NCBI GenBank assembly: GCA_020353355.1
Contig: CP070694.1
Location: forward strand, 3,801,822-3,865,821
Direction: 5' to 3'
Length of the DNA stretch: 64,000 bases
DNA from: Desulfobacterales bacterium
GTDB taxonomy: Bacteria; Desulfobacterota; Desulfobacteria; Desulfobacterales; JAHEIW01
Shown: positions 25,021 through 45,769 of the stretch, in pieces
Layout: every line of letters starts with the position of its first letter
Numbering within the stretch: the first letter of the stretch is position 1
The notes under the pieces: model-generated
Databases searched by the model: none
What the model saw: the letters and a program-made list of their open reading frames with translations, nothing else
Told to the model about the DNA's origin: nothing
Position numbers and translations under genes: made by a program

Positions 25021-25043
25021 CACGCCATCATTTTGAATAAAAC

Positions 25044-25235
25044 CTATTCGTAGGCAAGCACCCGTATTAAACCAATGGTGGCACCGCTGTCATCAGTTGT
25101 ACAGGTGTCGCTAACAGAAATTACTTTTCGCACCTTGTTTGCTTCGATAAACTTGTTGACCATGCGATCCAGTTCTTCCAGTTCTTTTCTGGCGTGGAAT
25201 ATTTTCAGCGGACTGGCGAATGTTTTAGCTTTCAT
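25044..25235 (-). CDS. Small hypothetical protein (63 aa)
   Basis: ORF only. It has a weak resemblance to Cse60-type small proteins. It is convergent with the lipoprotein gene. Confidence 0.35.
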   Translation of the reverse strand: MKAKTFASPLKIFHARKELEELDRMVNKFIEANKVRKVISVSDTCTTDDSGATIGLIRVLAYE

Positions 25236-25326
25236 TGTAGCTCACTTCTTTCTGAGTTATCCGAAAACATTTAATTAAAACAGATTAAAAAATCTCATTG
25301 AGTTTGTAAAGCGAGTGATTTTTTTC

Positions 25327-25382
25327 TTTAATCCTTAACCTTTTGCTCCAAGCTCTATGCCCTATGCTTTAGGTCCCAGCGA
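25327..25382. repeat. Degenerate heptamer array (8 units)
   Basis: Units tttaatc/cttaacc/ttttgct/ccaagct/ctatgcc/ctatgct/ttaggtc/ccagcga, in one phase and G-poor. Confidence 0.55.
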
Positions 25383-25388
25383 CATTTT

Positions 25389-26465
25389 TCAAATATAATT
25401 GATCGGCGCTAACCCCTTACGTCTGCGGACGGCCTCTAATAACCCCACCGTTCCGGTCATCATATTGTCTCCGAAGGGCGCACCAAACGCAATCGGCAGA
25501 CTCGAGTTTTCAACCAATCTACGCTTTGGGCCGGTGGCAATGATTACATCAACGTCTCCAAAACCAATGGCTTTTCGCACAAAGGCCCCATGGCCCCCCT
25601 CTTCCAGGATTTGGCGGTGTTCCAATTTGCCTTCACCCAATTCACGCAAAAGTACTTCCAGCCGGCCCAGGGTGATGTCAACCGTATGATATTCAAAAAA
25701 GCCGGCGATTTCATCGCCACTCATGGCAGCGCCAACCGTATGGGAAGTGGCCACATCTAAAATGAATATCTTTTGCTTGCCTTTTGCCAGAGCGTCTTTT
25801 GATGCACCTAAGATTGCGGCCATACCACTGTCCATCACATACACTTCTTTGGCTGGCAGGGCCTGGGCAGACCTGGCAAGCGAGCCCAAGCGGTTCATTT
25901 CAGACGGAATTTCATCCTTTCTAAAAAGCAAGCTGTGCGCATACGGATTTTCTTCCAGGTGGGCCTTAAACATATTGTGACGAAAATCCAGGTGCGACAC
26001 GCCTTCCGGTGGCACCCCGTGATCCTGGGCGCAAACGGCCACGGCATCAAATTCAAACGCAACGCCAAATCCGTCTATAATCTGTTTCAGTCTGGCGGCA
26101 TCCAGGTCTGCCAGGGTTAATACAGAATATTGGTTACCCCGCCGCAGTGCTTCGGCTTCTTCATCGGCGATGATATTTATATTCCAGGATCTGACTTTTG
26201 TCAGATTGTGGTGAAGGGTTGCCGCCGCTGAAACAGAAATCATCACCTCAGCTGTCTTTGCTCGATCCTGTAAAACTTTTGTTATCGGCCCTCCCCCCAT
26301 TTCACAGCCGCTAACCAGCAAATTTCCTGAGCTCTCAGCTGCCTTTTCAGCCAAATACCGCACCGGCGACTTCACCACCGCCTTATAATGAAGATCGGTC
26401 TTGGTATCATAATACAGTATATCCATCGTCCCGGCACCAATGTCCACCATTAGAAATCGGCTCAT
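25389..26465 (-). CDS. DUF1786-family ASKHA (actin-like ATPase fold) protein
   Basis: The N-terminal phosphate-1 motif VDIGAGTMDILYYD and the overall length and sequence match the DUF1786 family. Confidence 0.6.
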   Translation of the reverse strand: MSRFLMVDIGAGTMDILYYDTKTDLHYKAVVKSPVRYLAEKAAESSGNLLVSGCEMGGGPITKVLQDRAKTAEVMISVSAAATLHHNLTKVRSWNINIIADEEAEALRRGNQYSVLTLADLDAARLKQIIDGFGVAFEFDAVAVCAQDHGVPPEGVSHLDFRHNMFKAHLEENPYAHSLLFRKDEIPSEMNRLGSLARSAQALPAKEVYVMDSGMAAILGASKDALAKGKQKIFILDVATSHTVGAAMSGDEIAGFFEYHTVDITLGRLEVLLRELGEGKLEHRQILEEGGHGAFVRKAIGFGDVDVIIATGPKRRLVENSSLPIAFGAPFGDNMMTGTVGLLEAVRRRKGLAPINYI

Positions 26466-26555
26466 TTGTTAAAGTCCTCTGATTTTTGTATTGGTTGTGC
26501 TTCTGCAAAATACTTGGCATCATTTACCGATGCTCGAAGCCGGACAAAGACCAGA

Positions 26556-27791
26556 TCAAGCATCCGCTTTCTTCACCCGCGTGATGAGCATCGCCGCCAG
26601 TCCGGCCATTATCGTGCAGATCAGAAAGGATTGATCGTAAATACCGCTCTTATCCCTCAGGATCCCTGAAATCCAGTGGGTCAAAATCGCGCCAGCTCCA
26701 TAAAACGGTGTCCAGGCGCCAATAACCGTCGCCATGGCCTCGCGCGGGAAATAATCTCCGGCTAAGGCGCCATATATTGGAAAAGTCGCCCCATAAAAAA
26801 TAGCCAGACACCCGACAAATACACACAGCATGATCCATGAATCCCCGGCCAGGAGTATCCCGGCCAGCGCCGCGGTGATCAATGAATTCGAAATAATGAT
26901 CGTTTTTTTGCGGCCTAAATAGTCTGAAAGCGGTAAAACCGTCAACACCCCCACGATCTGGCCGATGCCATGAACGGTTGCTAGTAAGCTGGCCTTTTCA
27001 AGGGGCAGGTCCAGCTGGTATTTGGCGTAATCCACCATGAAGGTGGTCATACCATAGAGACTGTATGCAATGGCAAAATATGACAAGCCAACTGCCCAGA
27101 AGCGGCTGTTTTTAAAAATGGCGGCCAAGGGAACCTTCACGGGGCCTGTCTTTGCATTGGCATTTCTATTGGCGGGCAGATCTTTTTTTAAACCCCACGG
27201 TTGCAGGCCAATGTTTTGCGGATCATTTCGCAGGAAAATTCCATTGACAATGGCCATCAGCAGCGCCATGCCGCCTAAAAAGAACCAGGCATAACGCCAG
27301 TTGAAATACTCAAAGATAGGAGGAAAAACAATTCCCGTGGTCGCAAAACCCAGCCCATAGCCGGTCGAAAGGATGCCCAGCGCAAGCCCCCGGCGGTGAA
27401 AGGCAAACCACCGCTGAACCAATGTGATCACCGGCCCCCACAGACCGGTTGCTCCGAGGCCTACGATCCCGAAAAACAGACATGATGCCCACAGGGAATG
27501 AACGGTTCCCATTAAAGACACCCCGCATCCGAGAAGCACCAGACAACAGGTGATGACCGGCCTGGCTCCTAATCGATCGGTCACATATCCGGTAATCGGG
27601 GCGATACAAATGTAGGTGAACAGCAGAGAATTGATGATCGATCCGCCGTCTGCGCGGCCAAACCCAATGGTGCGGATCATCTCCGGCAAAATCACACCAT
27701 AACCGAGGCGCACCGTATAGTTAATAAACAGGTTAACAAAACATATCCCCAGAATAATCCACGCCCAGTGTAATGGTTGTCTCGTATCCAC
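26556..27791 (-). CDS. MFS transporter (oxalate/formate antiporter-like subfamily)
   Basis: 12 TM helices and DRLGARP (MFS motif A). The likely start is GTG at 27791, 6 nt after AAAGGAGGA. The track ORF extends to 27914. Confidence 0.8.
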   Translation of the reverse strand: MDTRQPLHWAWIILGICFVNLFINYTVRLGYGVILPEMIRTIGFGRADGGSIINSLLFTYICIAPITGYVTDRLGARPVITCCLVLLGCGVSLMGTVHSLWASCLFFGIVGLGATGLWGPVITLVQRWFAFHRRGLALGILSTGYGLGFATTGIVFPPIFEYFNWRYAWFFLGGMALLMAIVNGIFLRNDPQNIGLQPWGLKKDLPANRNANAKTGPVKVPLAAIFKNSRFWAVGLSYFAIAYSLYGMTTFMVDYAKYQLDLPLEKASLLATVHGIGQIVGVLTVLPLSDYLGRKKTIIISNSLITAALAGILLAGDSWIMLCVFVGCLAIFYGATFPIYGALAGDYFPREAMATVIGAWTPFYGAGAILTHWISGILRDKSGIYDQSFLICTIMAGLAAMLITRVKKADA

Positions 27792-28045
27792 AAACGGTCC
27801 TCCTTTACCAAAGCCGGTGTACACCCTTTTATCTCTGAATTTCAAGAAATTTGCGACAGAATCAGCCAGATGATAATATGTTGGCAGTTTATCTTTTGAC
27901 TTGATGAGATACATATGCCATAGAAAATTTTTTGTATAGTATCATCTTATCAGTAAAATTGGTTGGAATTTAAACCTCATCTCATGGTATTCCGATGGTC
28001 AACCCCATTAACCTCAGGCAAAAATATAGAGAGGGAGACTGGACG

Positions 28046-29497
28046 ATGGATTTAAGAGGTCTTAGCGGAGGGCTTTATCAACCCCTTTCACCGGCAAATA
28101 TCGAAACCATCCACGAGGCGTCACTGACCATTCTGGAAAAAACCGGCATAGCATATGAGTCCGGTCTGGAAGCCACCATTGATTTGCTTGAAAACAATGG
28201 CGCGACTGTAGATAGAAGCCGATCAAGGGTTTTCCTTTCCAGAGACCTGGTCGAAACTCAGGCACAAAAGGCGCCTGAGCGGGTCGTTCTTTACAGTCGG
28301 GACGGAGACTATGACCTGGATCTCACTCAACACCGCGTTTATTTGGGTAGCGGCGGGGCGGCCATCAAAATTATAGATCTTGAAACCGGTGACGCCCGGC
28401 CTTCCACGTTAAACGATCTATATCAACTCGCGCGGTTGGTGGATAACCTGGACAACATCCATTTTTTTCTGCGCCCCTGCATCCCCACAGATATCCCTGA
28501 AGATGCCTATGATGCAAATGTTTTTTTCATGTGCTTAAAAGGCACGAGAAAACATGTCATGGCCGGTGTCAACAATGAAGAAGGCTTTCACACAGTATTG
28601 GATCTTGCTTCAATGCTGGCCGGCACGCACGATAAATTAACTGAAAAACCGTTTATCTCCATCATAGCTTCATTTGCCATCAGCCCCTTGAAACTTTGCA
28701 CGCAATCGACATTGATTATGCAAGCAGCCGTGCGCCAGCAAATTCCGGTAGCGCTTTCAAGTGCTCCGATGGCGGGTTCAACCTCGCCGCTGACAATGGC
28801 CGGCACTTTGGCCCAGCTGCATGCCGAACAGCTGGCCGGAATTGCTATTTGTCAATTAACCCACCCGGGAGCACCGATCCTGTATGGCGGTATACCCGGC
28901 ATGGCCAATTTACGAAACTTGGACTACTTAGGTGGCGCGGTAGAATTCGGCATGATGAATGCAGCCATCCACCAACTCGCTCACCATATCAACATTCCCA
29001 ACTATAACTCATCCGGTCTTTCGTACTCAAAACTCCCGGATGCCCAGGCCGGATGGGAAAAAGCATTAACAACAATTCTGGCGGCCATGGGGGGATCCAA
29101 TTATGTGCATCATGCGGCCGGTATGCTGGAGTCCATGTTGACGGTGGCCTATGAACAATATGTGATGGACGATGAAATTATTGGCATGTGCTGCAAGGTG
29201 CTGAAAGGAATCCAGGTGGATGATGAACATCTCGCCCTTGAGGCCATTGATGCGGTGGGCCCCGGAGGAACTTTTATTACTTCACCTCACACGGTGGCAC
29301 ACATGCACGATGAATTTTTTCAAGGCAACGGAATTTCGGATCAAAACAGTCGAGACATTTGGCAAGAAAAAGGTAAACAAGACGCCAGAACTCGCGCCCG
29401 CGAAATTGCAAAAACCATTCTTGCCCGGGAAGAAAAATCGCATATCGCAATTGACGTCGAACAGGCGATCCGGAAAAAATATGAGATATTGCTTTAA
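28046..29497 (+). CDS. MttB-superfamily methyltransferase, non-pyrrolysine type (quaternary amine:corrinoid methyltransferase candidate)
   Basis: Full-length MttB-family sequence (~480 aa) with no in-frame TAG. GAGGGAGA RBS lies before the ATG at 28046. Confidence 0.8.
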   Translation: MDLRGLSGGLYQPLSPANIETIHEASLTILEKTGIAYESGLEATIDLLENNGATVDRSRSRVFLSRDLVETQAQKAPERVVLYSRDGDYDLDLTQHRVYLGSGGAAIKIIDLETGDARPSTLNDLYQLARLVDNLDNIHFFLRPCIPTDIPEDAYDANVFFMCLKGTRKHVMAGVNNEEGFHTVLDLASMLAGTHDKLTEKPFISIIASFAISPLKLCTQSTLIMQAAVRQQIPVALSSAPMAGSTSPLTMAGTLAQLHAEQLAGIAICQLTHPGAPILYGGIPGMANLRNLDYLGGAVEFGMMNAAIHQLAHHINIPNYNSSGLSYSKLPDAQAGWEKALTTILAAMGGSNYVHHAAGMLESMLTVAYEQYVMDDEIIGMCCKVLKGIQVDDEHLALEAIDAVGPGGTFITSPHTVAHMHDEFFQGNGISDQNSRDIWQEKGKQDARTRAREIAKTILAREEKSHIAIDVEQAIRKKYEILL

Positions 29498-29605
29498 TTC
29501 TTTTTATGGATTGAGTTATGATGCCAAATTCATTGTTGGTGATAAAAACGAGATTGTTCTAAAACCAATCATTCCCCCGCTGGTTTTTAGAAAGGAGGCT
29601 TGATA

Positions 29606-31570
29606 ATGTCTGATACAGCAAAATGGTACGATGCACACCTGCCTGAATTTCAAAAAATTGCCTACATCAAATCAATGGATGAATATACCCATCTATATCA
29701 ACGATCCATTGAGGATCCGGATGGTTTTTGGTCGGAACAGGCCAAACGCTATCTGTCATGGGAAAGAGATTGGAATTTTGTTCTAAAATACGATTTCGAG
29801 GCAGCAAAAATAGCGTGGTTCGGGGGTGGCGTTCTGAATGCCACCTTCAATTGTCTGGATCGACATCAGGATACAATTAAAGACAAAGTGGCTTACTTCT
29901 GGGAAGGAGACGACCCGGTTGAATCAAAAGAAGTCACTTTCGGGGAGCTTTACAATCAGGTCAACCAATTTGCAGCCGTTTTAAAGTCACAGGATGTTCA
30001 AAAAGGTGATCGCGTTATTATCTACATGCCCATGATCGTGGAATTACCGGTCGCCATGCTCGCCTGCGCGCGGATCGGAGCCATTCACAGTGTTGTATTC
30101 GGCGGGTTCAGTGCCGAAGCGCTGACAAACCGCATTCAGGATTGCCAGGCAAAAATGGTGATTACAGTTGACGGCGGTTACCGCGCTGGAAAAGTGATCC
30201 CTCTGAAAAATACGGTTGATGAGGCGCTTAAAAATTGTCCGGATGTTGAAACCCTGATTGTCTTCAATCGAACCGGTCAGGCACTTGATCTCAATCCGCA
30301 ACGCGAGATCTGGTGGCACGAAGCCATCACCAATCCCGACCTGCCTTCCCAAATCCCCCCCGAGCCCATGGATGCCGAAGATCCGCTGTTCATTCTGTAT
30401 ACCAGTGGCAGTACCGGTAAGCCCAAGGGAGTAGTTCATACCCATGGCGGATATCTGCTTTACGCAGCCATGACCAATCGATTGGTATTTGACCTCAAAG
30501 ACCACGAGATCTTCTGGTGCACGGCCGACATCGGTTGGATCACCGGACACAGCTACACGGTTTACGGTCCGTTGATTAACGGATTCACCAGTATTTTGTT
30601 CGAAGGAGTGCCCTCATATCCGGATTATGGCCGCTTCTGGCAGGTTGTTGAAAAATATAAGGTAAATAAATTTTACACCGCCCCAACAGCCATTCGTGCC
30701 CTGGCCAAAGAGGGCTCGGAATACGTGGGAAAATACGATATTTCTTCTTTAACACTTCTCGGAACCGTTGGCGAGCCCATTAATCCGGAAGCCTGGCGCT
30801 GGTACTATCATTATGTGGGTCGCGACTGGTGTCCCATTGTGGATACATGGTGGCAGACCGAAACTGGCGGTCACATGCTCACGCCGTTGCCGGGGGTATC
30901 ACCGGTAAAGCCGGGCTCCTGCACCTTTCCATTCTTTGGGGTGGATCCGGTGATTCTCGATGATACCGGAGAAGAAGTGAAGTATCCGAATCAGGAAGGC
31001 TACCTTTGCATCCGCAAACCCTGGCCGGGCATTGCCCGCACTGTTTACGGCGACCATGATCGCTTTACCGAGACCTACTTCAGCAAAGTACCGGGGATGT
31101 ATTTTACCGGTGACGGCGCCAAAAAGGATGAAGACGGATATTTCTGGATCATCGGCCGGATCGATGACGTTCTCAACGTTGCGGGACACCGCCTGGGAAC
31201 CGCTGAAATCGAATCGGCCCTGGTGCTGCACGACGATGTCGCCGAAGCAGCCGTGGTGGGATATCCGCATCCCATCAAGGGACAGGGTATCTATGCCTTT
31301 GTCACATTAAACACCGGTGTAGCCAAAACCGATGAATTGAAGAAAGAGTTGGTACAGCTGGTTCGCTCTGAAATCGGACCCATTGCCACCATTGATATCC
31401 TTCAATGGGCGGATGGTTTGCCGAAGACGCGCAGCGGTAAAATTATGCGGCGAATTTTAAAAAAGATTGCCGCCGGCCAAACAGAGGATCTGGGAGATCT
31501 TTCAACCATTGCCGACCCCACAGTCATTGATGATCTGATTGCAGAAAGCCAGGATTTAAGAGCGGAGTAA
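29606..31570 (+). CDS. acs: Acetyl-CoA synthetase (AMP-forming)
   Basis: 654 aa with [19 protein letters not shown] and the C-terminal [11 protein letters not shown] motif containing the regulatory Lys. AAGGAGG lies 6 nt before the ATG. Confidence 0.9.
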
Positions 31571-31615
31571 ACGCAAAATGCAAGAAGAATTGGTTTAGCT
31601 AAAGGCGATTCCGAT

Positions 31616-32092
31616 ATGCGCTGCATCGACAAACACGGAAAGTCGTTTGAGGTAAAAAAGTACCGCCTCGAAGACTATGCCGCCCTTGAAGCCATGTATG
31701 TGACCTTTTATCCCAAAGGCAAATTTCAGGGGATGCCTCCATTACAGGATGAGGCCAGCCGCAAATGGATCAACGGACTGCTTGAAAATGGAGAAAACTT
31801 TTTGGCCTGGCAGGATGGCATCATCGTAGGACATGTGGTCGTGTTGCCCGATTTCGATAAAGGTGATGCGGAGTATTTGATCTTTGTCAGGCATCCGAAT
31901 CGTGGACGAGGAATCGGCAGTGAACTCAGCCGCGCCGTCCTTCAACACGCCAAAAATCTCGGTTTGGAGACGATTTGGCTGATTGTCGGCGCCACCAACT
32001 TTCGAGCAGTCGGACTGTATCGAAAGTTCGGCTTCAGGTTTTGCAACTCTGATCTTTCGGAATCCGAACGCAAAATGATATTAAACCTTTGA
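31616..32092 (+). CDS. GNAT-family N-acetyltransferase
   Basis: Acetyl-CoA-binding motif RGRGIGSEL and the GATNFRAVGLYRKFGF region. Confidence 0.8.
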   Translation: MRCIDKHGKSFEVKKYRLEDYAALEAMYVTFYPKGKFQGMPPLQDEASRKWINGLLENGENFLAWQDGIIVGHVVVLPDFDKGDAEYLIFVRHPNRGRGIGSELSRAVLQHAKNLGLETIWLIVGATNFRAVGLYRKFGFRFCNSDLSESERKMILNL

Positions 32093-32100
32093 GATGTCCG

Positions 32101-33138
32101 ATGGCTTTGAAACTCGGTATAGTCAGAGACGATCGGTTTTTGGAACATATGCCGGGGCACACCCACCCCGAGCATCCCAGCCGGCTGAGAGCCGTACACC
32201 GCATGCTGGATACCGAATTGCCGGAAGGGTACGACGTCATACAGCCCCAACCGGCAACCCTAGAGGTATTGGAGCTCATTCACACCTCAGCCTATATTAA
32301 AAAGGTCTTGAAAACAGCTGATCACAAATTTACCAGCCTTGCACCGGATACCCCCGCCAGCGCAAAAACGTACTTATCTGCCTGGCTGGCTGTCGGAGGC
32401 TGTCTGAAAGGTCTGGAAGCCCTGGTTTCCGGGCAATGCGATGTCTGCTTTGCCATGGTCAGGCCTCCGGGCCATCATGCCCTTGCGGATCGCGCAGGCG
32501 GTTTTTGCATTTTTAACAATTTAGGCATTACGGCACGGTATGCTATCAATCAATTTGGTTTCCAGCGAATTTTAATTATTGATTGGGATGTCCATCATGG
32601 CAACGGCATTCAAGATTTGTTTTACCGGGAAAAAAAAGTTCTCTATTTCTCCACCCATGATATGCTCCTTTATCCTTATACCGGCAACCTGGAAGAAACC
32701 GGAAAAGGGTGGGGGCAGGGTTACACGATTAATATTCCCTTACCGCGAGATCTGAACGATGCGGACATCCTGCATCTCTACCGTGGTGTCCTCACGCCGG
32801 TTGTTCAAAGATACGTGCCGGATTTGATACTCATCGTCGCGGGCTTTGACGCGCACCATGAGGATCCCATCGGCAGAATGCAGATCACCGAATCTGCTTT
32901 TGCAGATTTAACCCGTTTGCTGCTCCATTTGAGAACCATGGTGGATGATCCACCAATTCTTTTTGCATTGGAGGGAGGTTACAGTAACAGAGGCCTTGCC
33001 AATTCGGTTCGCAGCGTTCTTAACATCCTGACGTCAAAGGCGGCACCGCAAGGATTTCCAAGCAGCGAAACGATTTTAGGGGCTCGACTTGTAGCAAAAG
33101 CCTGTGAAATTCATAGGCCGTATAAGGTGTGGACATGA
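32101..33138 (+). CDS. Histone deacetylase-family (AcuC/HDAC-like, Zn-dependent) deacetylase
   Basis: RPPGHHA, DWDVHHGNG, GFDAHHEDP and EGGY motifs. It starts 9 nt after the GNAT stop. Confidence 0.85.
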   Translation: MALKLGIVRDDRFLEHMPGHTHPEHPSRLRAVHRMLDTELPEGYDVIQPQPATLEVLELIHTSAYIKKVLKTADHKFTSLAPDTPASAKTYLSAWLAVGGCLKGLEALVSGQCDVCFAMVRPPGHHALADRAGGFCIFNNLGITARYAINQFGFQRILIIDWDVHHGNGIQDLFYREKKVLYFSTHDMLLYPYTGNLEETGKGWGQGYTINIPLPRDLNDADILHLYRGVLTPVVQRYVPDLILIVAGFDAHHEDPIGRMQITESAFADLTRLLLHLRTMVDDPPILFALEGGYSNRGLANSVRSVLNILTSKAAPQGFPSSETILGARLVAKACEIHRPYKVWT

Positions 33139-34865
33139 TCAAAGCCAAAATACCAGCAGCCAATCCCAACGCTAATCTCAAGTCTTATAAGGATACCTAT
33201 AAAACGTTTCAATGGGAGAATGTGGCCAAAGAATTCACATGGCATCACAGCGGCAAGCTCAACATCATTCATGAAGCCATTGATCGATGGGCACAGAATC
33301 CAACGAAACGGGACCAACCCGCGATCATATTTGAAAAAGGCAATCAATTAACCAGTTACACCTATGGCGATCTGCAAGAAAAATCCAGTCAATGGGCAAA
33401 TTTTCTTTCAGAGTGCGGGTATAAAACCGGTGACCGTCTGTTTATCTTTACACCTTCCTGTATGGAAGCCTATCTGGCCATGCTGGGGGCCTGTCGTCTG
33501 GGGGTCATTTTTTGCCATCTTTTTTCTTCTACCGGCTTTGATGATCTGGCCTTGCGCCTTGCCAATGCGAAACCCCGCGGCCTTCTTACGCATCCGGACC
33601 TTTTGGAGAGACTTCCGCCGGAGGCCAAAGAATTTGTCCAGCATGTTTTCTTAACCAAAGGCCCGCCAACCAACCTGTTTCCCAGGGAAACTATCATTGA
33701 ACACATACCCGATCAGATGCCCAAAACGTTTGAACCCGTATGGCTTGCGCCGACATCACCGCTTTATATGAATTATACATCCGGTTCTACCGGCCCGCCC
33801 AAAGGCATTGTCCACGTTCACAAGGACATGATGGGTATTTTGATTTCGGCGCGATACGTTCTTGATCTGAACGAGGGTACGATTTTGTGGGCTGATGCCG
33901 GTCCGGCCTGGGTAACGGGGACCGTATATGGTGTATTCGCACCACTGCTATGCGGGGCGACATCGTTGATTCAAGGTGATGAGTTTTCCGCTTCAAATTG
34001 GTATTGGGCTCTGGAAAAACATCGCGTTTCCGTTTGCTACACCACGCCCAGAAACCTCCTGTGGCTTAAAGCTGCCGGAGATAACCTGCCCACCCGCTAT
34101 GATCTTTCCAAGTTACGTCACATTCTAACAGTCGGGGCACCGCTGGTTCCCGACCTTTTCTACTGGGTCAAACAGAACTTAAACCTGTCCCCCCATGACA
34201 CCTATTGGATGACGGAAACCGGAATAATCAGCATCGCAAATTATCCATCCATGGACATCAAACCGGGATCCATGGGCAAGCCACTCCCCGGCATAGAAGC
34301 AGCGGTGGTGGATGAAAATGGTGAGCCTTTACCGCCCATGTCGACGGGGGAGTTGGCGCTGAAGGCGGGATGGCCCGGTATGATGAGCGACTTGTGGCAG
34401 GACAACGAGCGCTATCAGGTCTATTTTCGTTTTAAAGGCTGGTTTTTAACCGGCGATATCGTTATCAAAGATGATGACGGGTATTATTATCATCAGGGCC
34501 GCAATGATGACCTCATTAAAGTGGGCGGTGACAGAGTCATCGGTCCATTCGAAATTGAACAGGTTCTTTGCAAACATCCGGCAATCGACGAAGCTGCTGT
34601 CATTTCCAAAGGGACTGAACCGGGTGAAGGTATTTCATATTTAAAAGCGTTTATAACGATCCATCCGAAATATACCCCATCGGTGCGACTCAATCATGAA
34701 ATCAAGTCGTTTGTTACCGCCAATATGGCACCCGATTTTGTTATTAAAGAAATCACTTTTCTGAATGAGCTTCCCAAAACCCGCAGTGGCAAACTTTTAC
34801 GACGGGTTTTGCGGGCACAGGAATTGGGATTGCCAGGAGGCAATGCCCTCAAGATGAAGGATTGA
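33129..34865 (+). CDS. AMP-forming acyl-CoA synthetase, short AcsA-like type
   Basis: About 575 aa with YTSGSTGPPKG, WMTETG and the C-terminal PKTRSGKLLRR. It overlaps the deacetylase gene by 10 nt. Confidence 0.8.
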   Translation: MDMIKAKIPAANPNANLKSYKDTYKTFQWENVAKEFTWHHSGKLNIIHEAIDRWAQNPTKRDQPAIIFEKGNQLTSYTYGDLQEKSSQWANFLSECGYKTGDRLFIFTPSCMEAYLAMLGACRLGVIFCHLFSSTGFDDLALRLANAKPRGLLTHPDLLERLPPEAKEFVQHVFLTKGPPTNLFPRETIIEHIPDQMPKTFEPVWLAPTSPLYMNYTSGSTGPPKGIVHVHKDMMGILISARYVLDLNEGTILWADAGPAWVTGTVYGVFAPLLCGATSLIQGDEFSASNWYWALEKHRVSVCYTTPRNLLWLKAAGDNLPTRYDLSKLRHILTVGAPLVPDLFYWVKQNLNLSPHDTYWMTETGIISIANYPSMDIKPGSMGKPLPGIEAAVVDENGEPLPPMSTGELALKAGWPGMMSDLWQDNERYQVYFRFKGWFLTGDIVIKDDDGYYYHQGRNDDLIKVGGDRVIGPFEIEQVLCKHPAIDEAAVISKGTEPGEGISYLKAFITIHPKYTPSVRLNHEIKSFVTANMAPDFVIKEITFLNELPKTRSGKLLRRVLRAQELGLPGGNALKMKD

Positions 34866-34934
34866 TTCTAATTCACACGATGATGATATCTGCGATCCTG
34901 TTTACATTTAAAAGGCCGAATCAATGAGGGAAAA

Positions 34935-35639
34935 ATGCTTGAAACGGATACGATTTTTGTCGAGGCTGACCAATTAACGGTTTCCGCACAAGAGATCGGG
35001 CGCTATGCGGGCGGCAGCCGCTATCGATTGGATCTTAAGATGAAAGCGCTGGCTTCAGACATGCTCGTGAAAGCCGCGACGCTGGTGAAGCCTGTGTTCA
35101 CATATGCGCTTCATCCGGTAAAATCCATCGAACGACAAAATGGATTTCGCCTGCAGAGTGGCAGTTACGTTGAAGTTCCTTTAGAAGAAAATGACCCTCA
35201 GACTGTTTCCTTGGCGGCCGTAATTTGTACGTTAGGTCCTGAACTCGAAAATACAACTCAGCGCTTAATGCAAAATGGCGATTTGCTCACAGCCATGTTC
35301 CTGGATGCTGCCGGTGTGGCCCAGCTGGAAATGCTGGCGCATAAGGCCCGAATGTATATAAAAAAAAGGGGGGCAAACCTCGGCCTTTTTACAGGATGCC
35401 CGTTTGGACCGGGTTACAACAACATGCCCCTTGATACTCAAACCAATCTGTTTAAGCATGTGGATGCCGAAAACATCGGCGTTCGGCTGAATGATAGCGG
35501 TGTGATGCTGCCCATGAAATCCATCAGTTTCTGGTTGAGGGTAACCCAGAACAAGAAAGCGGCCGAAGATCACGGGAATAAATGTGAGAAATGTGCTATG
35601 CAAAACTGCTTGTATAGAAAGGTTCCATATAAAAAGTAA
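34935..35639 (+). CDS. Stand-alone methionine-synthase activation-domain-like protein (Met_synt_B12-like) with C-terminal Cys motif
   Basis: The core GCPFGPGYNNMPLDTQTNLFKHVDAENIGVRLNDSGVMLPMKSISFW resembles the SAM-binding reactivation domain of MetH. The tail is CEKCAMQNC. Confidence 0.55.
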   Translation: MLETDTIFVEADQLTVSAQEIGRYAGGSRYRLDLKMKALASDMLVKAATLVKPVFTYALHPVKSIERQNGFRLQSGSYVEVPLEENDPQTVSLAAVICTLGPELENTTQRLMQNGDLLTAMFLDAAGVAQLEMLAHKARMYIKKRGANLGLFTGCPFGPGYNNMPLDTQTNLFKHVDAENIGVRLNDSGVMLPMKSISFWLRVTQNKKAAEDHGNKCEKCAMQNCLYRKVPYKK

Positions 35640-35659
35640 TATCGCCATGGAGCTAATAA

Positions 35660-36304
35660 TTAATGAATTTTTACCATCCCCATCCAGTTTGTGAAAGCGC
35701 GCTCTCCAGCAGGATGCAAGCCCCATTCATCACCGGCGTGCAGCAACCCCTCCACCATAGAATATCCATATCCCCGAGAACACGCCAACAACATGGCAAA
35801 AACGTTATTGCTTTGCCCTAATAAAACGATCTGGCAAGGGACGCGAAGAACGGGGGCTTGAAAGAGACAGGGATAGTGCATCTTGGGAGAACCAAAATCA
35901 AGCCCGCATAATTTCTCCATCATCGCAAAGAGTTCTCGCCCCACGATTGCCAGAAGCAAATGGGCGTCCGTTGTTTCGGTAAAAGCCGCCATATCCGTCT
36001 GACCGACATGATCTCCAATCAGGTGCCAGCAAGCGGCTTGAGTGCGATTCATCCGATTAATCAGGATGCCTCTTTCAAAAAGGCAGCTTCCCGGCAGCTC
36101 CGGGATCTGAAGGCCCCAGGGCTGAATGGCTGAAAGATCTGAATCCTGAACATCCCATTTTTTGATATGGCTCAGATCAACCAAATAAGGTGCGTCGCCT
36201 TCATCTTCATAAGCCAAAACAACTTCCCAGCCGTCGCGCCTCTCGGTCTGGATTGTCTTTTTGGCAAACGATACCGGGGAGTATCTTCGCAGTGTATTCA
36301 TCAT
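35660..36304 (-). CDS. soxG: Sarcosine oxidase gamma-subunit-family protein
   Basis: About 210 aa of GcvT-like fold sequence in the canonical position downstream of soxA. Confidence 0.6.
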   Translation of the reverse strand: MMNTLRRYSPVSFAKKTIQTERRDGWEVVLAYEDEGDAPYLVDLSHIKKWDVQDSDLSAIQPWGLQIPELPGSCLFERGILINRMNRTQAACWHLIGDHVGQTDMAAFTETTDAHLLLAIVGRELFAMMEKLCGLDFGSPKMHYPCLFQAPVLRVPCQIVLLGQSNNVFAMLLACSRGYGYSMVEGLLHAGDEWGLHPAGERAFTNWMGMVKIH

Positions 36305-36440
36305 CTGACCTTCACATACCCTTCATTCCTTTTAAATCCGAAATCTAAAATAGACTCGGCTGCATTCGGCCTGAGCCGTTCGGCCCTGAGCTCACAGCCA
36401 AAGGGCTCATGTCGAAGGCAAGCCCCGAGCGCCTCGATCC

Positions 36441-39356
36441 CTAAATCCGTATCCGCTTTCCTTGAAGATCATAAAACGGTGTGGGGTTTACACGAGCGTA
36501 GATACGTCGATCGCCGCATCCGTCTTCATAAATTTCCAGACGTGTGCCTTCTTTTGACAAAGGCGCATCGACCAAGGCCAAACCGATCGATTCATTCAAG
36601 GTAACGCTGAAGCGTGAAATACAGATATACCCGCGTATCTTCGTATCCACCACCAGAGACCCGTCTTTCGGGACTTGTCCGGGTTTCTCCAGCTTGAATC
36701 CCACCAGTTTGAGCCGATCTTGCTGGTTTTCAGTCTGTCTCAGGGCAACAGCCCCCACGGTTTTGGCGCCGGGTTTGTCTCGATCCCAAAGGAATCCAAG
36801 TCCGACATCATGCAAGGTCGTGCGCTGTTCAGACTCGGAGCCGATGATAATGTGCCCTTTTTCCATCCTGAGCACGTTCTGGGCTTCCAAGCCGAAATTG
36901 CGGATACCAAATTCTCTTCCGGCCGCTTCCAGCAAGTTCCAAACAGCTGGCATGTAGGAGGCGGGGACATGCAATTCATAGGAGAGTTCGCCCACAAAGC
37001 CCAATCTCATGGCGCGTACAGAAACGTTTGCATTGAGGGTAAACTCACGAGAGCCGGCTTACGCTAAGGCTTCGTTGGAAAGGTAGGTATCAGCGACCTT
37101 TTCGAGGACCCGGAGTGCATTGGGTCCTGCCAGATTGATCACCCCGAAGACATCGGTGAGGTTGACCATATAAAAGTTCCACCCATCATAGCGCGTATGG
37201 TAACGAAACCATTCCACCGTGCTTCCGGCACGGCCGGTGGACGTCGTAAAATAGTAATCGTTTTCAGCGCGTTTTACAATCACGCCATCGTCGATGATAC
37301 ACCCATCCTCATTGCACATCGCAGAGTATTTGATCTTACCCTCGCAAACCCTGGAAATATCGCTGACATACATTCGTTGCAACGCCTTTAACGCATCCGG
37401 TCCCCAAATGCGAAACTTGCCCAAGGTGGAGGCATCCAGCATGCCGACGTTGTTGCGGACATTTTCGATTTCTTCACGGCAACTCAAATCCTGTGAAAAA
37501 TAACGCGCCCGCTGCCAGACCCCGATGCGGCGCATCATACCACCGGCCTTTTCCTGCATGTCATGCACCGGCGTGCGTTTGCACATATCATGCTTGCTTG
37601 CGGCATAGGTCGCTATAAAAGCAGGTACCAACGGCGCGCGAACCGTCGTCGCTTTCGTCTTTACGTCACCATCGGAATTGGTTTGGGCGATAAACAACGG
37701 GAGGTTGTGTCCGGGTATCCCCCCTTGACCGGGACCGGTACCCGCAGCCGTAAAACGCTTAACCAACTCCGGTTCGTCAAAGCCCATCTGGATGGCCTGG
37801 CGAATATTTTTAACGGTTGTATCCTCATCAAAGCAGATAAACGTCTTGCGGCCCTTTAGCGGTGCCGTCACCAATTTGCTTCCTCTTTGCGGCCCCGGAA
37901 GCCGGCTGAGTTCCTCCCGGGCCTCATTCAATTTACTTACATCCTGTCTGCCGCAATCGGCAGCCGCCGAAATTCCAGCCAGGCGTCCGGAGGCTTCAAT
38001 TGAAAGGGAATTGGTTAATCCCAGCAGACGGCCTGCAGCGTGCACCTGCGGGGGTAATTTTATCGGCAAGAAAAATCCGGTGTGATCATCGAAGGACAAT
38101 GTTGCCTGTAGCAGAGAAAGTGGAGCCGTCACCGGAGTCATTCCTGCTGAAGCGACCAAAAGATCACATTCAATATCCCGCTGCTGGCTTCCGTCAATAG
38201 GACTTAACGTTGCTTTTTTGACGGTCTTTCCGTGGGCCTGGACGGCTATCCATCCGCGCAAAAGCGGTATATTCCTTTCAGCCAACCGAGCTACCAGGTA
38301 TGCATCCTGGCCGTCTTCCCGGATATCGGCAAGACAGGGGATTTCAAGGCCCAAATCGAAAAGATCGATGGCCGCTTCTATCCCTAAATCATGTCCGACA
38401 CTGAATACCGCGCGTTTGCCGGGCAGCACTCCGAACGAGTAGGCCAGGCGATGGGCACAACCGATTTGTATGACGCCGGGACGTTCATTGTTTTCAAACA
38501 GCAGGGGCCGCTCGATACAGCCGGTTGCCACGATAATACTCTGCGCTTGAATTTCGATATAGCGTTCATCGAAATGATCTGTTTCAGTTCCTTTCTGGAA
38601 AGCGGTAATAAGGTTGTGATGATAGGCACCGATCATGGCGGTATGGGTGAAAATACGAACATTGGGTGTTTGTTCAAGTTGCTGCACGAGGTCCCGGGCT
38701 CGTCGGTAAAGGGGCACGCCGCCGGCATATTCGACCGTGCGGTAGTCAAAAAAACCTCCCAGCCACGGGCGTGATTCCAGCAGGATGACCCGTAAACCTT
38801 GCCGGGCTGCGGCCAGGGCTGCCGACATGCCGGCGGCACCACCCCCGATGACGCATACATCGGTCTGCGGATAGATCTCATCGTACTTCCCGGGTATGTG
38901 AAAATCGGGCGCGATCTTTCCGAGACCTGCGGCCTTGCGTACCTGTTTTAGTGCAATTGGCCAAATCCACGCCGGCTTGTGCAGGCTGCGGTAGTAAAAT
39001 CCTGCCGGCATCGCCCAATCCAATTTATCGAGAAATCCTAAAAGATCGAATTCAGGTGTGCCTTTCACATTTTGCGCGTTGACGGTCATGCCGTCTCTCA
39101 ACCGTGTCGTTTCAGCACAGACATTGGGTATGCGATCGACTTCCATAAAGGTATTACAGGATTCGCCGTCCAGGCTGTATAGCCCTCGGGGTCGATGATA
39201 TTTCAAGCTTCGCGAAAAAATGCGGATGCCGTTGGCATAAAGGGCGGTGGCGATTGTGTCTCCGCTTACCCCCTGGCATGTTTTGTTCTTATAGGTAAAT
39301 GAAATGGGGTGAGCGGGATTGATCCGCAAGGTGGGCAATTTTTCCAGCCTGTTCAT
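36441..39356 (-). pseudogene. soxA: Sarcosine oxidase alpha subunit, interrupted by one in-frame TAA (37059-37061)
   Basis: ORF 37059..39356 carries the N-terminal Fer2_4-like region, GGGAAGMSAALAAA and the start of the GcvT domain. ORF 36441..37010 carries FVGELSYELHVP and the C-terminal barrel. The two are in the same frame (51 nt apart). The 16 codons between the TAA and the ATG read AGSREFTLNANVSVRA, which continues the SoxA alignment. Confidence 0.85.
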
Positions 39357-39613
39357 GACTGCGCCTCCGGGTGTTGCACTTCAAGATTATTGATGGTGTC
39401 TCGGTGGATCGTGAACCACAGGCCACACCCGTCCCGATGGCACCACCATTCTTTCTGGATTCCGGCCACGCATTGGTTCATGTGCACATAATCGCACCAG
39501 CTCTCCGGAGTAAGGCTGTCTTCATCAGGCCGAGGCCCTTTATCCTCGCCGCCATAGCGAAATTCATATGCGCTTCGTTTGCCGCAAATAGGACATCTTA
39601 TTATGAGTGACAT
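39353..39613 (-). CDS. soxD: Sarcosine oxidase delta subunit
   Basis: 86 aa with the CPICG...C..C zinc motif and SoxD-like sequence. It has a 4-nt ATGA overlap with soxA. Confidence 0.8.
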   Translation of the reverse strand: MSLIIRCPICGKRSAYEFRYGGEDKGPRPDEDSLTPESWCDYVHMNQCVAGIQKEWWCHRDGCGLWFTIHRDTINNLEVQHPEAQS

Positions 39614-39701
39614 CGTAATTTATACCTCTTCATTGATCCCGCTGGAATAAACGTGAGAGGTTGGTTTAAATGAACCTAATACACCATTTTTGAGACGGCT
39701 G

Positions 39702-40943
39702 CTAGTTATCCGGACTGTAATTGACCAGCGCTGCGGTTTCGCCCATGAGTCGGTGTTGCGCAAATCGTCGCAGTGCAAACGGCTTCAGTATATCGGAACA
39801 TTGCCCGCTAGCCATAAACTGGGCCATATACTTGCCGGTGGCGGCACAGGATTTAAAACCGAAATAGCCCCAGCCGCAGTCCATGTAATAGCCTTCAATA
39901 AGATCATTGCCGTCCAGGATGGGGGCCATATCCGGTGTCATATCCGCCAGCCCGGCCCAGTGTCGCATGAACTTTACGCCCCGCAAACATGGAAGAAGCT
40001 CTGCCAGCGCTTCGGCTTGATGTTTGATGTAATATGCCGTGGTGTGCGTCGTATAATTGGGCCAGGGGTCCATGTGAGCGCCGGTGGCGATTTCACCTTT
40101 CAGCGTTTGATTCGCATAGGCATGATACGCACCGGAAGAAACCACATGATCTAAAATAGGCTTCAGGGGCTGGGTAACCATAGCCTGGATCGTGAGCACG
40201 CTGATCGGCAGTTTAATGCCCAGCATGGCATAGGAAATCGCCGCGGAATACCCGCCGGCCGCCAGCAAAACTCGAGGTGTATAAATCTTTCCCCGGTTTG
40301 TATCGACAGAGACGATTTTGTGGTTTTCAACCCCAATTGAAGTTGTCTCCGTGTGCTGATGAATGTGAACGCCTAAACGTGAGGCACTTTTTGCCAATCC
40401 CCAGACCACCGCATCATGGCGCAGAATTCCACCCGGGGGATGATACATGGCGCCAATAATCGGAAAAGTAATATCCTCGGATATGTTCAAGGCCGGGACC
40501 AATTCCTTGCACTGTCTGGCATCAATCAGATGACTTTCCACTCCGTGAAACTGTGCCGTGGCAACGTTCATGCGGGCGGCATTCATGGCTGCCTCACTGT
40601 GCATCAGGTTCAGATTGCCGCAATTATTAAACATCAGGTTGAAATCGAGTTCTTCGGTCAATACCGGCCACAGCTCCAGGGCCTCTCTATACAGGGGAAT
40701 ATTTTCCGGGGTGCGCTGGTTGGCGCGCACGATGGCTGTATTTCTTCCCGCCCCACCAAAACCGATATATTCTTTTTCAACAACAGCCACGTTGGTCATG
40801 CCATGCTGGCGAGCCAGGAAATAGGCCGTCGCCAACCCGTGCAACCCCCCGCCAATAATAACGGCATCGTAATGCGATTGAAGCGCAACCCTCTGCCAAA
40901 AGCGCTTATTCTTTTTCAACATCAAAAATCCCATAACGGTCAT
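39702..40943 (-). CDS. soxB: Sarcosine oxidase beta subunit (FAD-dependent oxidoreductase)
   Basis: VIIGGGLHGLATAYFLA dinucleotide fold and the LRHDAVVWG segment (the FMN-linking His context of SoxB). 413 aa. Confidence 0.85.
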   Translation of the reverse strand: MTVMGFLMLKKNKRFWQRVALQSHYDAVIIGGGLHGLATAYFLARQHGMTNVAVVEKEYIGFGGAGRNTAIVRANQRTPENIPLYREALELWPVLTEELDFNLMFNNCGNLNLMHSEAAMNAARMNVATAQFHGVESHLIDARQCKELVPALNISEDITFPIIGAMYHPPGGILRHDAVVWGLAKSASRLGVHIHQHTETTSIGVENHKIVSVDTNRGKIYTPRVLLAAGGYSAAISYAMLGIKLPISVLTIQAMVTQPLKPILDHVVSSGAYHAYANQTLKGEIATGAHMDPWPNYTTHTTAYYIKHQAEALAELLPCLRGVKFMRHWAGLADMTPDMAPILDGNDLIEGYYMDCGWGYFGFKSCAATGKYMAQFMASGQCSDILKPFALRRFAQHRLMGETAALVNYSPDN

Positions 40944-41158
40944 CCCTTATCACAAACTTCATCAAATCAAAATCATTTTCAAAGTATAGCGGCAGATCGG
41001 AGTCGTCTTGCTGAAAGGCTTTGCGGCGCGCAAATCAGTCAAATCTTGATCAATTTAAAAGAATGTGGCAATAAAGCCTGGGACATTTAAGATTACCAAG
41101 CGAAGCCCTCTTGTTGGGGCTGTCATTAAAAGATGCGCGATTAACGGAGAAAAGTGCT

Positions 41159-42583
41159 ATGGTCGACCGCATGCAAGCATTCACAAAAGATGAACTCCGC
41201 CAGATTCATGATGCCTCAATGGAAATTCTGGAGGATACCGGGGTGAGATTCAACAGCGGCGATGCGCTTGAAATCTTCAAAAAACATGGATTCAAGCTTG
41301 ACGGTACACGGGTTTTCATCACCGAAAACGACGTCAGAAGCGCACTGGAAACCGCACCGGCACGTTTCACGGTCCGTGCCAGAAATGCGGATAACAATGT
41401 TGCCATTGGAGAAGAGGACTTTGTGTTTGTACCCACCAGCGGTGCCCCGAACGTAGCCACATATAAAGGTGTACGCCGGCCGGCAACGCTGGAAGATTAT
41501 CATACATGCTGTCAGTTGGTACAAACCTCCGATCAGTTGGATATGAGCGGGTGGTCAATGGTACAGCCCCTGGATATCCCCCCCCAAGTTGCCCATCTGG
41601 ATATGCTTTTGGCCGATATGGTGATGTGTGATAAAGCCTATATCGGGGCTGCCACCTCCAGACAGGCTGCCCGCGATTGTCTGGAAATGGCCGCGATTGC
41701 CTGGAAAGGAAAGGAAAATTTGAAGCGCCAGCCGGTTATGGCCACCATCGTCAATGCGATGTCACCCCTTAAATATACGGCCGAAGAAGCAGAAACCATT
41801 ATTGACATGGCGCATTTGGGGCAACCGCTGGTGATCACGGATTTAGTGATGGCCGGAGCGAGCGGTCCGGTATCGCTGCCCGGTCTGCTGGCCTTGGCCA
41901 ATGCCGAGATTATCGCTGGACTGGTTCTGGCACAACTGGCATGTCCCGGAACCCCTGTGGTCTACGGTTCCGTTTCGGCTCCGGCGGATATGAGAACCGT
42001 GGTCTCGGCAGTCGGAGCTCCGGAAGCAGTTGTGCTGGCATCGGCGGTCATTCAGTTGGCTAGATTTTACCACTTGCCCTGCCGCACCGGTGGGATGATA
42101 ACCAACGCACACTGTACCGATGCCCAGGCGGCGGCTGAGGGAACCCTCATGATGAGTACGGCCGTGCGCAACGGGGCCAACTTCATCGTTCACGCCTGCG
42201 GTCAGCTGGGCTCCTATATTTCGATGAGCTTTGAAAAATGGCTTGTCGATGAGGAGGTGTGCCGCACGATCCGCAGAATACTTACCGCCATGGATATTAC
42301 GGTCGAATCCATCGATGTCGAAACTATCAAAAGTGTCGGCAGTGACGGCAATTATCTGGTGCATCCGACGACCTTCAATCACTGCCGGAATTTTTACCGG
42401 CCGAACCTATTTACACGCGATGATTTTCAAAATTGGCATGACAGTGGGGCAAAAAGCGTTTCTGAAGTGGCAGCCGAAATGCTGCCCAAGCGCCTGGCTG
42501 AATACACTAAACCGCCGATTGATGAAGGCCTGGAGCAGGTATTAAGAGAATTCGTCAACCGGCGAAAAAAACAGCTTTTGTAA
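41159..42583 (+). CDS. MttB-superfamily methyltransferase, non-pyrrolysine type (second copy)
   Basis: Full-length MttB-family sequence with no in-frame TAG. GGAGA RBS lies 8 nt before the ATG at 41159. It is divergent from soxB. Confidence 0.8.
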   Translation: MVDRMQAFTKDELRQIHDASMEILEDTGVRFNSGDALEIFKKHGFKLDGTRVFITENDVRSALETAPARFTVRARNADNNVAIGEEDFVFVPTSGAPNVATYKGVRRPATLEDYHTCCQLVQTSDQLDMSGWSMVQPLDIPPQVAHLDMLLADMVMCDKAYIGAATSRQAARDCLEMAAIAWKGKENLKRQPVMATIVNAMSPLKYTAEEAETIIDMAHLGQPLVITDLVMAGASGPVSLPGLLALANAEIIAGLVLAQLACPGTPVVYGSVSAPADMRTVVSAVGAPEAVVLASAVIQLARFYHLPCRTGGMITNAHCTDAQAAAEGTLMMSTAVRNGANFIVHACGQLGSYISMSFEKWLVDEEVCRTIRRILTAMDITVESIDVETIKSVGSDGNYLVHPTTFNHCRNFYRPNLFTRDDFQNWHDSGAKSVSEVAAEMLPKRLAEYTKPPIDEGLEQVLREFVNRRKKQLL

Positions 42584-42607
42584 GGCGCAATTACCGATCG
42601 GCACGCG

Positions 42608-44347: not shown

Positions 44348-44348
44348 C

Positions 44349-45730: not shown

Positions 45731-45759
45731 TTGACATGCCCGTAAACTTTCTTTAAGAA
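45731..45759 (+). promoter_or_regulatory. Putative sigma-70 promoter for the riboswitch-cbiK transcript
   Basis: TTGACA (45731-45736), a 17-nt spacer, then TAAGAA (45754-45759). The -10 element is weak. Confidence 0.3.
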
Positions 45760-45769
45760 AATAGTCGAG

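Follow-up and report, generated by a model that had tools for sequence, protein, structure and literature searches.

Among the main sources of carbon and nitrogen in marine sediments are glycine betaine and similar methylated osmolytes. Aerobic catabolism of glycine betaine in Pseudomonas aeruginosa runs through gbcAB, dgcAB with etf, and soxBDAG, and in the characterized corrinoid-dependent systems the corrinoid and methyltransferase genes typically stand beside mttB, although this adjacency is not strictly required. To our knowledge, sulfate reducers and acetogens in culture take off a single methyl group and release dimethylglycine, and the system of Desulfitobacterium hafniense, as Ticak et al. 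reportedly described in 2014, ends at dimethylglycine. Sox-like dye-linked complexes of anaerobic archaea are represented by the L-proline dehydrogenase of Pyrococcus horikoshii (PDB 1Y56). Here we analyze a stretch of 64 kb from a Desulfobacterales bacterium (GenBank contig CP070694.1; henceforth the window), in which two non-pyrrolysine genes of the MttB methyltransferase superfamily, MttB-1 and MttB-2, flank a gene set of the heterotetrameric sarcosine oxidase type, soxBDAG. Comparison with related loci makes it rather probable that the window, from a Desulfobacterales-type anaerobe, contains in rearranged form a lineage-wide pathway for N-methyl removal, the substrate probably being a betaine-type osmolyte.

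In the glycine betaine methyltransferase MtgB of D. hafniense, the substrate-binding residues Y97, R312, H348 and F356 have been established by mutagenesis and a bound structure, and the substitution F356Y is tolerated (PMC13080624). Stepwise demethylation of betaine to dimethylglycine and sarcosine by MttB-type enzymes has been proposed for 'Ca. Formimonas warabiya' DCMF and Sporomusa ovata An4, where sarcosine is then reductively cleaved by a selenoprotein sarcosine reductase (PMC9768040). In cold-seep contigs, soxB and DMGDH have been drawn, unanalyzed, within mtgB cluster types (PMC8547467). Our literature searches found no paper on a Desulfobacterales soxBDAG-mttB-corrinoid string as a pathway, and a search combining Olavius with betaine, sarcosine and methyltransferase returned nothing.

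Linkage of MttB and Sox genes in related loci

Mapping by tblastn of the neighbors of MttB-1 orthologues in 80 metagenome contigs (68-78% identity), together with a neighbor-joining tree, separated a clade of 41 metagenome loci, to which the locus L012 from a metagenome-assembled genome (MAG) is added on the tree, from the remaining clade, that of the window, with 39 metagenome loci. In the former, 24 of the 25 corrinoid genes found are adjacent to an MttB-1 orthologue; the remaining one is upstream of soxB in L013, a locus in which we detected no MttB-1 orthologue. A Pterin_bind methyltransferase is often present, and soxBDAG is nearby at 10 loci; it stands directly upstream on the same strand in 7 of the 27 loci with at least 1.2 kb of upstream sequence, and none has a divergent MFS gene upstream. 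Sox adjoins the MttB-1 orthologue in L011, L041, L046, L060, L066, L071, L072, L080, L091 and L093. In the window's clade, by contrast, no adjacent corrinoid gene occurs among 30 loci with at least 700 bp downstream, no Pterin_bind methyltransferase was found, and soxBDAG is nearby in the window alone, whereas a divergent MFS gene, usually accompanied by DUF1786, lies upstream in 13 of the 28 loci with at least 1.2 kb of upstream sequence.

In 2 MAG loci and 10 metagenome contigs, soxG is directly followed by an orthologue of MttB-1 (68-75% identity), and most of these soxG-linked genes are followed by a corrinoid protein gene and often by one for a pterin-binding methyltransferase. L012 reads soxB-D-A-G, Pterin_bind, MttB-1 orthologue (70% identity), a B12-binding_2+B12-binding protein and an Opp-type ABC transporter, and the string of this sister clade can be summarized as soxBDAG-(DAO-etfBA)-pterin methyltransferase-mttB-corrinoid protein-ABC transporter, its sox operons being orthologous to that of the window (SoxA identity 62-75%). 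Because these relatives keep methyltransferase, oxidase and corrinoid protein in one operon, the link between MttB and Sox is real at the level of the lineage. The joint pathway proposed for both enzymes in an earlier note, which was made from the letters of the window alone, is thus upheld in outline by the operons of the sister clade; in the window itself it is weakened by the adjacency of MttB-2, which is confined to this species, and by a stop in soxA.

In L046 and L079, DAO-etfB-etfA is located between soxG and mttB, and L007 reads soxBDAG-DAO-etfBA (L007 13740-17101); the adjoining of DAO-etfBA and sox in these three loci hints at the electron-transfer flavoprotein (ETF) as electron acceptor. 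The DAO-family flavoenzyme (435-445 aa) is 53% identical to the copy beside the MttB-2 orthologue of the Olavius Delta-3 symbiont (L003 8625-9932), and is a candidate for a dimethylglycine-type step. The host of the window is regarded as an anaerobe because of its lineage and the markers in the window, namely HGD-D, an NfnAB-like pair and cbiK, and the nearest kin of MttB-2, SoxA and DUF1786 are found in Desulfobacterales/Desulfosarcina MAGs. The relatives, with ETF genes next to sox, suggest a dehydrogenase mode; in agreement with the earlier suggestion for an oxygen-type enzyme in an apparent anaerobe, Sox thus probably acts as a dehydrogenase in these organisms.

Directly upstream of the MttB-1 orthologue there is often (L043, L054, L055, L059, L069, L080 and others) a further MttB paralogue, which has about 30% identity to each of the window copies and shares one corrinoid gene with its neighbor; the pairing of mttB paralogues in relatives suggests two sequential demethylations. 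In L011 (5025-6489, MVDB01000149.1), the MttB-1 orthologue is seemingly frameshifted, with two overlapping tblastn segments.

In the pathway that we propose, the chemistry of the family would have an MttB-family enzyme move a methyl group of the amine to Co(I) of a small corrinoid protein, from which a pterin-binding methyltransferase would pass it to tetrahydrofolate. A SoxBDAG-type flavoenzyme would then oxidize the remaining N-methyl group, with the one-carbon (C1) unit entering the folate pool via the GcvT-like domain of the alpha subunit and the electrons going to a non-oxygen acceptor; the relatives have the extra DAO flavoenzyme and EtfAB beside sox. For the window we assume that the corrinoid protein, the methylcorrinoid:tetrahydrofolate methyltransferase and any activase would be encoded outside the 64 kb, MttB-1 travelling instead with an MFS transporter and the DUF1786 protein of ATPase fold.

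Active sites of MttB-1 and MttB-2

Both MttB proteins of the window are full length and their genes lack an in-frame TAG, as first described. Neither open reading frame (ORF) contains an internal stop, and the PF06253 matches extend over profile positions 30-489 (MttB-1) and 28-498 (MttB-2) of 500. MttB-1 is 33% identical to D. hafniense MtgB, and MttB-2 is 38% identical to it over the full length. Leu325 of MttB-1 (CTT, 29018-29020) aligns with the pyrrolysine of Methanosarcina barkeri MttB (PDB 7XCL), and MttB-2 has Met at the equivalent GG[M] position. The UAG of the Rfam model PYLIS_3 is also placed opposite this CTT, with the match covering the following 97 nt. Its interpretation as a pyrrolysine or recoding signal was rejected, the codon being CTT and several of the pairs non-canonical. 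The match instead reflects coding-sequence homology to true mttB, and as such shows MttB-1 to be nearer to true mttB than MttB-2 is; the NCBIfam trimeth_pyl model gives MttB-1 407 bits and MttB-2 365, both below the equivalog cut-off of 525.

The positions of MtgB Y97/R312/H348/F356 are occupied in MttB-1 by G104, Y320, H356 and M364 (G/Y/H/M), the Tyr at the Arg312 position being shared with true trimethylamine (TMA) MttB. These four residues and L325, the five positions checked, are invariant in 82 of 82 MttB-1 orthologues, whatever their gene context. Because this invariance extends across both clades, the same corrinoid-dependent chemistry is expected of MttB-1, which most likely uses a corrinoid protein encoded elsewhere.

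In MttB-2, the corresponding residues are S94, R309, H345 and Y353 (S/R/H/Y). Among 121 sequences of the MttB-2 family the Arg is invariant, the Tyr is present in 120, the H348 position holds H or Q, and the Y97 position is always small (G, A or S). MttB-2 probably binds a carboxylate-bearing quaternary amine, though it is not a proven MtgB. The complete glycine betaine site of MtgB is thus present in neither copy, MttB-2 keeping R312, H348 and, as Tyr, F356, and MttB-1 only H348; the earlier choice of glycine betaine as the substrate is not sustained by these residues.

A further idea, which we put forward as a long shot, is that the MttB-1 family may act on a substrate outside the characterized set, its pocket being like that of TMA MttB but with Leu at the pyrrolysine position. 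A tertiary or secondary N-methyl amino acid might be used, for instance dimethylglycine, and its product would pass directly to the co-operonic SoxBDAG; sulfate reducers could in this way strip a betaine fully to glycine without oxygen, and in the clade of the window the DUF1786 ATPase might be a new accessory, for example an activase replacing RamA.

Organization of the region

By synteny, the region is a composite and not one unit, made up of a DUF1786-MFS / MttB-1 module, an acs block and a sox-MttB-2 block. The related locus L021 has the order DUF1786-MFS / MttB-1-MetH-activation-like-beta-CASP; relative to it, the window has extra acs-GNAT-deacetylase-acs and sox-MttB-2-kinase-HDOD-cbiK blocks, an arrangement that indicates inserted blocks, and further relatives have other genes between MttB-1 and beta-CASP. 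The DUF1786 gene is kept with the MFS / MttB-1 module in 12-13 metagenome contigs. An independent contig (L100) matches the left part of the window through the junction of MttB-1 and acs and recovers the 483-aa MttB-1 gene model; since it reproduces the junction, the arrangement is not an assembly chimera.

The gene order soxB-soxD-soxA-soxG on the minus strand, between the two MttB genes, is as the earlier note had described it, but a third of the interval between MttB-1 and MttB-2 is filled by the acs-GNAT-deacetylase-acs block (29600-34865), an Acs/AcuA/AcuC-type acetylation switch that lies outside the methylamine pathway. The designation of the region as an island finds no counterpart in its borders: a tRNA scan found none, a repeat search of 24000-49000 gave no flanking repeats and no island borders, no integrase, transposase or other mobility gene was found among the scanned ORFs of the window, and the GC content of 0.51-0.525 is inside the range of the window, with no compositional break. 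A scan of 25000-44500 for promoters and terminators gave no operon evidence, the counts not exceeding those expected from shuffled sequence.

Judged by its contexts, MttB-2 is a distinct, normally solitary paralogue that happens to adjoin sox in the species of the window. It adjoins soxB only there (L001, L014, L015), and its orthologues, 69-84% identical, are solitary genes in six unrelated contexts that share no neighbor except the DAO gene in the Olavius Delta-3 symbiont.

This composite structure raises the alternative that the neighborhood is due to chance, with MttB-1 (together with MFS and DUF1786), MttB-2 and soxBDAG serving different substrates, no intermediate passing between them in this organism, and the sox block inserted in a variable spot between MttB-1 and beta-CASP, an explanation that we hold to be unlikely. 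Several observations speak for chance or against the pathway reading. Both extra blocks are missing from L021, and other relatives carry different cargo at the same place. Not one of the other 39 loci in the clade of the window has sox near MttB-1, and the solitary orthologues of MttB-2 have neither sox nor a corrinoid gene alongside in any of the six contexts. MttB-1 and MttB-2 are only 26% identical and differ in their pockets: MttB-1 is without the carboxylate-binding Arg of MtgB and both its aromatic residues, and MttB-2 has lost Y97. No Etf or DAO gene was found in the window, and soxA carries an in-frame TAA at codon 766, within its folate-binding GCV_T domain. With no sox elsewhere in the clade of MttB-1 and MttB-2 beside sox only in this species, the local juxtaposition could be accidental. 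However, the sister clade, with the same residues at the five checked positions, is repeatedly operonic with orthologous soxBDAG, and these operons imply that a functional link exists between this type of MttB-1 enzyme and this type of Sox. In addition, MttB-1 and sox are again found 6 kb apart in the window, which makes pure chance unlikely. We therefore retain the reading of the window as a rearranged copy of the lineage-wide pathway.

Interruption of soxA

SoxB matches the beta subunit of the heterotetrameric sarcosine oxidase TSOX (Table 1) and, at E 4.4e-44, the archaeal 1y56_B, and has His at the residue aligned to His173 of 2GAG, to which flavin mononucleotide (FMN) is attached; SoxA, read through its stop, matches TSOX alpha at E ~1e-98. 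The NCBIfam TSOX cut-offs are missed by soxB (401 vs 529), soxD (78 vs 116.5) and soxA (538 bits vs 1164, scored on the truncated fragment). The soxG call is based on position, on 45-58% identity to the same-position gene of related sox operons and on a weak GCV_T-clan match, and PDB and NCBIfam searches with this gene gave no match. The operon, earlier taken to be complete, is thus weakly assigned at soxG and interrupted at soxA, where the TAA cuts the GCV_T domain at profile position 161 of 255.

Contigs L014 and L015 (the latter from GCA_975850205.1, same species), which derive from other samples and are 99.3-99.4% identical over 7 kb, encode an intact SoxA of 971 aa with TTT (Phe) at codon 766. 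The gene is intact as well in the six Desulfobacterales/Thermodesulfobacteriota MAG loci that cover this codon (L007-L012), where the motif is SNEAFP(F/Y)xGYREF, as compared with SNEALA*AGSREF in the window (asterisk, stop). The change from TTT to TAA takes two base changes. Relative to the 99.4%-identical contigs, soxA codons 748-778 (37025-37114, 31 codons) contain 7 nonsynonymous and 0 synonymous changes, and the remainder of the gene 3 nonsynonymous and 8 synonymous ones, so that the patch may be a local strain lesion, a recombination or an assembly fault. The in-frame TAA of the neighboring hybrid kinase gene falls in the G1 box (LEI*DNGRGM), 6.2 kb from that of soxA, and no other gene of the 64 kb is split. 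Because of the premature stop, the oxidative branch is either inactive in the strain of the window or misreported by the assembly. Recoding of TAA was also considered and was rejected, given a normal release factor 2 (RF2) gene with the usual frameshift site in the window and TTT in the near-identical strains. Exact-product look-ups of MttB-1, the 490-aa MttB-2 model, the truncated SoxA and the truncated kinase gave no match.

These data bear on the alternative of a decaying pathway, in which soxA would be a pseudogene and the MttB genes would have been orphaned after loss of their partners, with no current catabolic role. Consistent with decay are the location of the stop inside a patch with nonsynonymous changes only, the second in-frame TAA in the adjacent kinase gene, and 64 kb without corrinoid or pterin genes. 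Nevertheless, soxA is otherwise intact and conserved, as are both MttB genes, soxB and soxD; soxA is uninterrupted in the contigs of the same species, and its stop in the window may stem from an error of sequencing or assembly. Moreover, the whole MttB-1 clade is stably without an adjacent corrinoid gene, yet its active site is invariant, which favors trans-encoded partners. We consider decay to be quite improbable, and a rearranged copy of the lineage-wide pathway is again the reading that we prefer.

Partner genes and the DUF1786 protein

Scanning of approximately 60 ORFs spanning the window with Pfam/NCBIfam profiles revealed no B12-binding, Pterin_bind or RACo-type domain. When corrinoid and pterin proteins from one related locus were used as tblastn queries, the window gave no match, and a profile built from the 25 cognate corrinoid proteins of related loci found nothing in it better than E 0.34. 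The cognate corrinoid protein with a methylcorrinoid:tetrahydrofolate methyltransferase alongside, present in the sister-clade loci, is therefore not in the window, and the reported absence of a corrinoid protein, a pterin methyltransferase and a RamA is confirmed. Its reading as a special feature is not, because the absence of an adjacent corrinoid gene is, in the loci compared, the usual state both in the clade of MttB-1 (0/30) and around the MttB-2 orthologues (all six contexts). For annotation, this means that an MttB gene without a neighboring corrinoid gene is normal in this lineage, and caution is due also with the locally interrupted soxA.

The MFS transporter, the DUF1786 protein and the MetH-activation-like protein that had been listed in place of these partners are all present, the last with a score below the Pfam cut-off. 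The match of this 234-aa protein to Met_synt_B12 (PF02965) is weak and covers only profile positions 195-246; the protein weakly resembles the stand-alone MetH activation-domain protein TM0269 (PDB 1j6r, E 3.7e-5, residues 94-201), and its gene directly follows an MttB-1 orthologue in L021 only.

The conservation of DUF1786 is very strong (68-86% identity over hundreds of metagenome proteins), its ATPase motifs are intact, and its AlphaFold2 (AF2) model (pLDDT 87) has a generic actin-like ATPase (ASKHA) fold. The best Foldseek matches are MreB, type III pantothenate kinase, PPX and ROK kinases with TM scores of 0.3-0.5; RACo is absent from the top 50, and there is no RamA-specific match. The protein has one invariant Cys only and no Fe-S domain. 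A RamA-like role is not supported by the modeled fold. An HgdC-like two-Cys activator was rejected in view of the single invariant Cys, and a literature search on DUF1786 found no papers. That MttB-1 enzymes of the DUF1786/MFS-linked clade need no corrinoid protein of their own and have a new kind of partner (activase or substrate kinase) in the DUF1786 ATPase, which would amount to a variant mechanism in the MttB superfamily, is very unlikely: the retention of the DUF1786-MFS / MttB-1 module, the lack of a corrinoid gene at the loci of that clade and the conservation of DUF1786 speak for it, but the checked active-site residues are those of the corrinoid-linked orthologues, the single Cys and the generic fold matches do not suggest such a partner, and orphan MttB genes are common in the lineage.

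Gene content of the window

The features of the region are listed in Table 1. Genes for corrinoid supply, comprising cbiK with its riboswitch and an ABC/CbiQ-type transporter set at 53.7-56.6 kb of the window, lie near the methyltransferase genes. To the left of DUF1786 are a gene for a bacterial serpin (21775-23001, plus strand, E 8e-134) and a conserved, lipoprotein-like gene of 211 aa (24385-25020, plus strand), which also joins the DUF1786-MFS-MttB-1 module in four relatives.

Table 1. Features of the window discussed in the text, with positions counted from its first nucleotide.
Feature	Position	Strand	Remarks
DUF1786 (PF08735), actin-like ATPase-fold protein	25389-26465	-	Pfam E 1.2e-64
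MFS transporter, divergent from MttB-1	26556-27914	-	weak best matches to monocarboxylate and oxalate:formate-type MFS
MttB-1, non-pyrrolysine MttB-superfamily methyltransferase, 483 aa	28046-29497	+	PF06253 E 1.8e-106
Rfam PYLIS_3 match inside MttB-1	29018-29117	+	52.4 bits, gathering score 38
acs, acetyl-CoA synthetase, 656 aa	29600-31570	+	
GNAT, 158 aa	31616-32092	+	
class-I deacetylase-like, 349 aa	32089-33138	+	
second acetate-CoA-ligase-like gene, 578 aa	33129-34865	+	
MetH-activation-like protein, 234 aa	34935-35639	+	Pfam Met_synt_B12 23.9 bits, cut-off 25
soxG-position gene, 214 aa	35660-36304	-	GCV_T weak match, E 8.8e-4
soxA, 971 codons, interrupted by in-frame TAA	36441-39356	-	TAA at 37059-37061
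soxD, 86 aa	39353-39613	-	PF04267 E 4.9e-25
soxB, 413 aa	39702-40943	-	PDB 2gag_B E 2.9e-88
MttB-2, non-pyrrolysine MttB-superfamily methyltransferase	41159-42583	+	PF06253 E 8.5e-133
GAF-HisKA-HATPase-receiver hybrid kinase with in-frame TAA	42608-44347	-	TAA at 43214-43216
HDOD protein	44349-45578	-	
cobalamin riboswitch	45751-45951	+	86 bits
cbiK, anaerobic cobalt chelatase	46107-46985	+	preceded by cobalamin riboswitch
beta-CASP RNase	47197-48771	-	
prfB (RF2)	51744-52776	+	CTTTGAC +1 frameshift site 51744-51750

Comparison with known systems

The MtgB-MtgC-MtgA system of D. hafniense (PDB 2QNE, 9YCE; PMC13080624) resembles the locus in that the MttB proteins of the window are non-pyrrolysine TIM-barrel proteins, and the likeness is extended in the relatives, where the MttB-1 orthologue is followed by a 210-aa B12-binding_2+B12-binding protein and a Pterin_bind methyltransferase. 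It differs in that the glycine betaine pocket is incomplete in both window copies, the window is without a corrinoid or methyltransferase gene of this kind, and the D. hafniense genes are not known to be linked to soxBDAG. In common with 'Ca. F. warabiya' DCMF and S. ovata, where several MttB paralogues share corrinoid and MtgA genes, the relatives pair a second MttB with the MttB-1 orthologue; sarcosine is handled there by a reductase, in contrast to the oxidative SoxBDAG type of the window. MttB of M. barkeri (PDB 7XCL) shares with MttB-1 the Tyr at the Arg312 position of MtgB and the coding-sequence match to PYLIS_3, but MttB-1 and its orthologues have Leu (CTT in the window) for pyrrolysine in 82/82 cases, and its score remains under the equivalog cut-off.

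On the oxidative side, the Sox complex of the window is like that of P. aeruginosa in its heterotetrameric make-up, the order B-D-A-G, the FMN histidine and the folate domain, and the second flavoenzyme with EtfAB beside sox in the relatives parallels dgcAB with etf. The pathways differ in that a corrinoid methyltransferase set takes the place of the oxygenase GbcAB, that the host of the window is an anaerobe, for which O2 is an unlikely acceptor, and that its Sox proteins score below the NCBIfam TSOX cut-offs. The 1Y56 complex illustrates that SoxB/SoxA-type flavoproteins occur in strict anaerobes with acceptors other than O2, although the archaeal alpha subunit is without the GcvT folate domain and the window complex is far closer to bacterial TSOX. 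Although the window copy is rearranged and possibly partly inactive, the lineage-wide sox-mttB-corrinoid string may constitute an under-described variant of these known systems. If so, the Desulfobacterales string would give anaerobes full demethylation with every C1 unit passing to folate, and models of methylated-amine turnover and of the competition with methanogens would change.

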